Assembly: GCF_044324785.1 (NCBI RefSeq)
Contig: NZ_CP172127.1
Strand: one strand, 5' to 3'
Source: Escherichia coli
GTDB taxonomy: Bacteria; Pseudomonadota; Gammaproteobacteria; Enterobacterales; Enterobacteriaceae
Length of the DNA: 64,000 nucleotides
The notes under the pieces are model-generated. The model did no database searches, was not told the origin of the DNA, and was given only the letters and a program-made list of their open reading frames with translations. Position numbers and translations under genes: made by a program. Below, in pieces: positions 52,999 to 53,036 of this stretch; the first letter of the stretch is position 1; every line of letters begins with the position of its first letter.

Positions 52999-53018
52999 AA
53001 CTGTCGATACGTACAGTA
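52999..53018 (-). promoter_or_regulatory. LexA box 1 of ydjM (TACTGTACGTATCGACAGTT on the coding strand)
   Basis: Canonical CTGT-N8-ACAG read from sequence, 15 bp upstream of the ydjM ATG. Confidence 0.85.
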
Positions 53019-53036
53019 TAGGATTTTTATACAGTG
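53017..53036 (-). promoter_or_regulatory. LexA box 2 of ydjM (CACTGTATAAAAATCCTATA on the coding strand), overlapping box 1 by 2 bp
   Basis: Half-canonical box matching the second ydjM SOS box as I recall it. Confidence 0.7.

Follow-up and report, generated by a model that had tools for sequence, protein, structure and literature searches.

The ydjM gene of Escherichia coli is listed among the LexA-regulated genes as a member of the classical SOS regulon (PMC6590174). Tandem LexA-binding sites at this gene are described as "experimentally reported" by Fernandez de Henestrosa et al. 2000 in the passage of PMC4951493 that cites that work, and the exact 20-mer of the distal site (box 2 below) was printed at -52 of b1728 in Table 2 of a 2015 paper (PMC4576408). 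RegPrecise holds one ydjM site only. For the proximal site (box 1) a heterology index (HI) of 9.0 has been published, and RNA-seq showed that AZT induces ydjM 2.5-fold and that its expression is 8.6-fold dependent on cleavable LexA, the induction being modest beside that of tisB, umuD and dinI in the same table (PMC11228462). Under ciprofloxacin the log2 fold change of ydjM reached up to 2.6 (PMC11002266). The Salmonella gene was induced 2.11-fold and its two boxes have HI values of 9.12 and 12.85, the latter for the equivalent of box 2; the fluorescence of a ydjM-gfp fusion in Salmonella was undetectable, too dim for analysis (PMC8072944). The same study places the Salmonella recN boxes at distances of 8, 26 and 48 (PMC8072944). 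Colicin operators are bound by two LexA dimers, and cooperative binding has been measured there (PMC2994835, PMC11332147).

Overall, the measured induction of ydjM amounts to 2-6-fold. The tandem ydjM operator is already known, since it was reported in 2000 (via the citation above), box 2 was printed in 2015, two boxes are recognised in Salmonella and expression is LexA-dependent. The site analyzed here is very probably this known SOS operator. A preliminary description of the locus had read the two sites as LexA boxes of ydjM, which is borne out by the SOS regulon listing, the 8.6-fold lexA dependence and the cited tandem sites; the SOS-induction transcriptomics that it proposed as a check are available in the published AZT (2.5-fold) and ciprofloxacin (log2 up to 2.6) data. 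Its further statement that ydjM is tightly repressed and normally fully silent is not supported by such modest induction ratios. A low output would be accounted for equally well by a weak promoter. The dimness of the Salmonella ydjM-gfp fusion fits low expression and is compatible with tight repression or a weak promoter alike.

Locus and arrangement of the two LexA boxes

The analyzed DNA (the window) is a 64-kb stretch of the E. coli chromosome. The 901 bp around the boxes are 100% identical to strain N3 and are present in 5423 of 5426 complete genomes, and the 99-bp ydjM promoter was found in 5422 of the 5426 complete E. coli genomes. RefSeq annotates hxpB, ydjM and tcyP around the boxes, all on the minus strand of the window. 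The features of the operator and the gene are as follows.

52999..53018, minus strand: LexA box 1 (proximal), TACTGTACGTATCGACAGTT; canonical CTGT-N8-ACAG palindrome with an unusually G+C-containing spacer
53017..53036, minus strand: LexA box 2 (distal), CACTGTATAAAAATCCTATA; good left arm, AT-rich spacer and degenerate right arm
52992..52996, minus strand: GTGAG resembling a Shine-Dalgarno sequence (GTGGG in most genera), 7 nt upstream of the ydjM ATG
52394..52984, minus strand: ydjM coding sequence, 196 aa; Pfam YdjM PF04307 at 7e-36; inner-membrane, predicted metal-dependent hydrolase

Both boxes together read CACTGTATAAAAATCCTATACTGTACGTATCGACAGTT on the minus strand from 53036 to 52999. 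This is the coding strand of ydjM, and the boxes lie in the 5' region of the gene. They overlap by 2 bp, the common TA at 53017-53018. With its exact CTGT-N8-ACAG, the 20-bp box 1 is a full palindrome, and one half of box 2 is degenerate; the two form an overlapping pair of a strong and a weak site. Since the annotated ydjM ATG is at 52984, the pair spans -52 to -15: box 2 starts at -52 and box 1 ends at -15, with 14 nt left before the ATG. These positions and sequences agree with the preliminary description, which had placed two boxes overlapping by 2 bp at 15-52 bp upstream of the ydjM ATG. Strain K-12 MG1655 is identical from the conserved block upstream of box 2 (described below) through both boxes to the ydjM ATG.

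The context of this ATG, ATCATGACGGCGGAA, is kept in almost all orthologous loci. The in-frame GTG at 52996, which the ORF tool had chosen as the ydjM start, was rejected because it is unconserved, whereas ATCATGACGGCGGAA is conserved. Also rejected was a 47-aa ORF at 52896..53039 (minus strand), whose GTG is missing in most genera.

Matrix scores of the boxes

The bare motif CTGT-N8-ACAG occurred once in the 64-kb window against 0.55 occurrences expected, and is thus uninformative alone. We therefore give the scores of a position weight matrix (PWM) built from 18 E. coli LexA boxes (PMC3009722, Table 4), none of which comes from ydjM. Box 1 scored 14.7 bits (rank 4) and box 2 scored 15.3 bits (rank 3) among 127,962 positions, so that the PWM scoring proposed in the preliminary description came out high for both. 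The sole higher scorer in the window was the cho box, itself in the training set, and the next unrelated site had 11.5 bits; boxes 1 and 2 are therefore the top non-training matches in 64 kb. Both totals lie inside the range of the proven LexA sites in leave-one-out scoring (10.8-28.1). The per-position probability was about 3e-6 for each box, corresponding to 0.3-0.5 such sites expected per 64 kb, and two such sites at most 25 bp apart were found in none of 200 windows simulated with a first-order Markov model. The joint occurrence of both boxes is not due to chance.

The two boxes reach similar totals by different routes. Box 1 obtained 11.3 bits from its left arm, -1.3 from the spacer and 4.7 from the right arm. 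For box 2 the left arm gave 9.75 bits and the spacer 6.5, together 16.3 out of a possible 19.3, and the right arm gave -0.96 against a maximum of 10.05. At the place where CAG is invariant across all 18 reference sites, box 2 carries CTA in its right arm. Because of this arm, box 2 is better described as a half-site with an ideal AT-rich spacer than as a full box.

The published LexA box of cho (ydjQ), CACTGGATAGATAACCAGCA, lies at 39907..39926 (minus strand) and was the top LexA-matrix match of the window with 21.2 bits. It is 13 nt upstream of the GTG of a 295-aa ORF (39006..39893, minus strand). Counting the ydjM pair and the cho box, there are two SOS operators in the 64-kb window. A further sequence, CACTGGATAGATTATTAGCA (54545..54564, minus strand), lies within the final codons of yniA and begins with the same 12 nt as the cho LexA box; it has no CAG arm, scored 10.0 bits and is probably a coincidental match that the matrix favours. 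The only Rfam family match in the window was the ES036 (CssrF) sRNA at 40001..40043 (minus strand), with 42.9 bits against a gathering score of 37.6, situated between a nadE-like ORF (40123..40950) and cho.

Conservation across Enterobacteriaceae

Orthologous loci were collected with one genome per species, which gave 80 ydjM loci from about 25 genera of Enterobacteriaceae, with YdjM proteins 85-99% identical. In 78 of the 80 loci the two sites with the highest LexA-matrix scores in front of ydjM had a spacing of exactly 18 bp and the same order. Departures from this layout were found in Intestinirhabdus, with a degenerate box 2, and in one Leclercia, with a 1-bp insertion; one Citrobacter locus has a weak box 2.

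Over 71 distinct upstream sequences the major allele had a mean frequency of 0.93 in box 1 and 0.95 in box 2, compared with 0.57 at the four-fold degenerate sites within ydjM of these genomes, where none of 71 sites was invariant. Within box 1, CTG and ACAG were invariant, the spacer was variable and a T-to-G change at CTGT was tolerated, which in this alignment is the conservation pattern of a classical operator. Box 2 was conserved along its whole length: its CTGT was retained in 69-70 of the 71 sequences, the spacer was nearly invariant with three fully invariant A-tract columns, and the right end CCTATA was invariant, none of the 80 loci showing a drift towards CAG. The near-invariant spacer of box 2, as opposed to the variable spacer of box 1, suggests a constraint beyond LexA, and the invariance of box 2 may be partly a promoter effect.

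Sequences of Klebsiella, Proteus and Aeromonas were taken from PLSDB records of 4-5 Mb, which are evidently mislabelled whole chromosomes (E. coli is among them too). Klebsiella ydjM showed the same two-box layout with 18-bp spacing. Proteus mirabilis, whose YdjM is 53% identical, carries one LexA box, a strong one (21.1 bits) that begins 6 nt downstream of TATACT; upstream the locus keeps CTGT-N10-TATACT with the 14-nt offset of E. coli, a stretch that scores -1.8 bits as a LexA site. More distant YdjM-family genes, on an Aeromonas caviae chromosome and on plasmids of Vibrio, Shewanella and Alteromonas, had no LexA-like site of at least 8 bits within 250 nt upstream, indicating that LexA control is not universal in the family. 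Genes of the YdjM family annotated as 'metal-dependent hydrolase' occur on hundreds of plasmids, including 157 Bacillus and 109 Clostridium records, as well as in Shewanella, Vibrio and Azospirillum.

Candidate promoter elements and the block upstream of box 2

A scan of positions 52800-53300 with the sigma-70 consensus found no promoter with at least 9 of 12 matches, which is consistent with a weak ydjM promoter. Since the scan found none, the hexamers considered here were picked by eye from conservation and are to be taken as hypotheses only. The elements concerned are listed below.

53015..53020, minus strand: TATACT, candidate -10 hexamer, straddling the junction of box 2 and box 1; all six columns invariant in 71 sequences
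53040..53059, minus strand: conserved block GTTACACCGTCACCACTTCC just upstream of box 2; its core is GTTACA-C-CGTCACC-N-CTTCC
53079..53107, minus strand: CTGAAT-17-ATTAAT, the window's version of a promoter predicted by RpoD genomic SELEX in the yniC-ydjM spacer

TATACT is also present in Proteus mirabilis, again 14 nt downstream of CTGT. In the window it is preceded by TTCCGT (53043..53038) at a distance of exactly 17 bp. An alternative pairing joins the invariant GTTACA (53059..53054) to CACTGT/TACTGT (53036..53031), exactly 17 bp further on; the E. coli CACTGT has 2 of 6 matches to the -10 consensus. The SELEX-predicted promoter reads CTGAAA-17-ATTAAT in K-12, and the SELEX study assigned promoters by best match rather than by start-site mapping (PMC3946193). 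If this promoter is used, both boxes lie downstream of its start site. The stretch that carries it is unconserved outside Escherichia, and the whole hxpB-ydjM spacer of Enterobacter has only 95 nt. A hairpin with a 13-bp stem, 8 G-C pairs and a poor T-tail (CTTTATCTGA) is found just after the hxpB stop (53114..53145, minus strand), within the part of the hxpB-ydjM spacer that is missing from other genera.

The block at 53040-53059 had at least as many invariant columns as either LexA box, 15 of 20 in the 71 sequences against 11 and 9 of 20 in the boxes; no regulator is annotated at this position. Over the 38 columns upstream of box 2, 15 were invariant, against none of the 71 four-fold degenerate sites of ydjM. 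Beyond the block conservation is less strict and extends to about 53071. Most genera have TGTGAC upstream of the block, giving GTGAC-N13-GTCAC; K-12 and the window have AAGAGA instead. The CRP consensus is TGTGA-N6-TCACA and that of CpxR is GTAAA-N5-GTAAA. Compared by eye with the consensus sequences of CRP, TyrR, CpxR, marbox, sigma-32 and sigma-E, the block gave no match that we would claim: in each case either the spacing was one base off or at most about half of the positions agreed.

The block may be the -35 region of ydjM, the site of another factor, or both. One reading is that a second regulator binds there and adds, for example, a membrane or envelope stress signal to the SOS response, box 2 being invariant as part of a composite promoter with a LexA half-site. 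The up-regulation of ydjM on plasmid expression of the membrane toxin TisB supports such a reading, which we nevertheless regard as improbable.

Proposed mechanism of repression and alternative explanations

We propose that one LexA dimer would bind the canonical palindrome of box 1 and that a second dimer would contact the consensus left arm and the AT-rich spacer of box 2. As box 2 has no right arm, the second dimer would probably depend on the first; LexA plausibly occupies box 2 with the combined help of the left arm, the spacer and the neighbouring dimer. With site centres 18 bp apart, the two dimers would cover about 38 bp (-52 to -15), including every conserved -10-like hexamer, and in this proposal RNA polymerase would be excluded because these hexamers, the TATACT at the junction among them, are covered. 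Upon DNA damage, activated RecA would promote LexA self-cleavage, both sites would be emptied, and ydjM would be transcribed from an intrinsically weak promoter, giving a few-fold to roughly ten-fold change. The modest induction ratio of ydjM speaks against a doubly locked promoter. We infer the identity of the promoter hexamers and their steric occlusion at ydjM and, by analogy, cooperative LexA binding.

The features of box 2 could also mean that box 1 is the only working LexA operator, and that box 2 is mainly core promoter in which CTGT and the A-tract arose by chance and are conserved on account of RNA polymerase or a different factor. In favour of this are the -0.96 bits of the right arm, the invariance of CCTATA and of most of the A-tract spacer, in contrast to the spacer of box 1, and the invariance of TATACT. 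Proteus, with its one strong box 26 bp downstream, keeps CTGT-N10-TATACT (14 of 20 positions identical) at -1.8 bits. Box 2 is lost or weakened and box 1 kept in 2-3 of the 80 loci (L025, L062, L013), and RegPrecise has its single ydjM site. On the other hand, the left arm and spacer of box 2 hold 16.3 of 19.3 bits and CTGT is retained in 69-70 of 71 sequences; the same 18-bp pairing of a strong and a weak site is seen in recN boxes 2 and 3, and in the colicin operators a degenerate second box can be bound cooperatively (PMC11332147). Tandem sites at ydjM are moreover cited as experimentally reported in the relevant passage of a review (PMC4951493), and the authors of the Salmonella study also counted two boxes (PMC8072944). 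We consider it unlikely that box 1 works alone.

Somewhat less unlikely, but still doubtful, is that the boxes act as a roadblock or downstream operator for an upstream promoter, either CTGAAT-17-ATTAAT (53107..53079) or GTTACA-17-CACTGT, without occlusion of a -10 hexamer at the junction. An RpoD holoenzyme SELEX signal and a predicted promoter do lie in the yniC-ydjM spacer (PMC3946193), but the predicted hexamers are unconserved outside Escherichia, the entire Enterobacter spacer measures only 95 nt, and the SELEX promoters were assigned by best match, without start-site mapping. For the second pair, the invariance of GTTACA and its distance of exactly 17 bp from [T/C]ACTGT are in favour, and the 2 of 6 matches of the E. 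coli CACTGT to the -10 consensus are against. As for both matches being functionless chance resemblances to LexA sites, each box taken alone would have about 0.3-0.5 equally scoring sites expected per 64 kb, and CTGT-N8-ACAG alone is not enriched; however, pairs within 25 bp appeared in 0 of 200 simulations, the 18-bp spacing is fixed across about 25 genera, and LexA-dependent expression of ydjM is published. Conservation and expression data already refute this explanation, to which we give practically no credence. Occupancy of both boxes by LexA, with box 2 as the weaker partner, stays our preferred reading.

Comparison with known LexA operators

As a discovery the site has small weight: it belongs to the textbook SOS operators and can be taken as a positive control for recognising LexA boxes by eye. 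The comparative additions are modest, namely a layout fixed at 18 bp, a box 2 that never has a right arm, a recN-like geometry, and an invariant TATACT with its conserved upstream block. YdjM is a LexA-controlled, membrane hydrolase-like protein, and its promoter architecture is useful for designing reporter and deletion experiments.

The autoregulatory operator of lexA resembles that of ydjM in that two neighbouring LexA boxes stand directly in front of the gene they control, but its boxes are spaced by 21 bp, do not overlap, and both have complete arms (22.4 and 18.3 bits). Colicin operators, like that of ydjM, combine one strong and one degenerate LexA box with overlapping ends. Their boxes share a core arm (left arm-N8-core-N8-right arm), which is more overlap than the 2 bp at ydjM. 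In the literature examined, cooperative LexA binding, which the preliminary description had assumed for ydjM, is documented for the colicin operators, and no measurement of it was found for ydjM.

The same geometry is found in recN boxes 2 and 3 of K-12: there too the two 20-mers share a TA, their centres lie 18 bp from each other, and a strong and a weak box are paired with the degenerate arm at the junction (recN promoter L083, offsets 64 and 82). The recN operator differs in containing a third strong box, another 22 bp upstream, and in its much stronger induction, 19-fold compared with 2.5-fold (PMC11228462). In its weak arm TGG is still present; of CAG, nothing is left in the right arm of ydjM box 2.

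Among the ydjM operators themselves, that of Salmonella enterica (STM14_1605) has its pair of SOS boxes at the E. coli distances from the ATG, 14 and 32 bp, and in the same 18-bp arrangement. Its box 1, TACTGTATGAATTGACAGTT, scores 18.7 bits compared with 14.7 bits for the Escherichia box 1. The published E. coli ydjM operator is the same locus as the one analyzed here and shows no difference from it: the window comes from another E. coli strain, the K-12 sequence is identical, and the position of box 2 at -52 matches.
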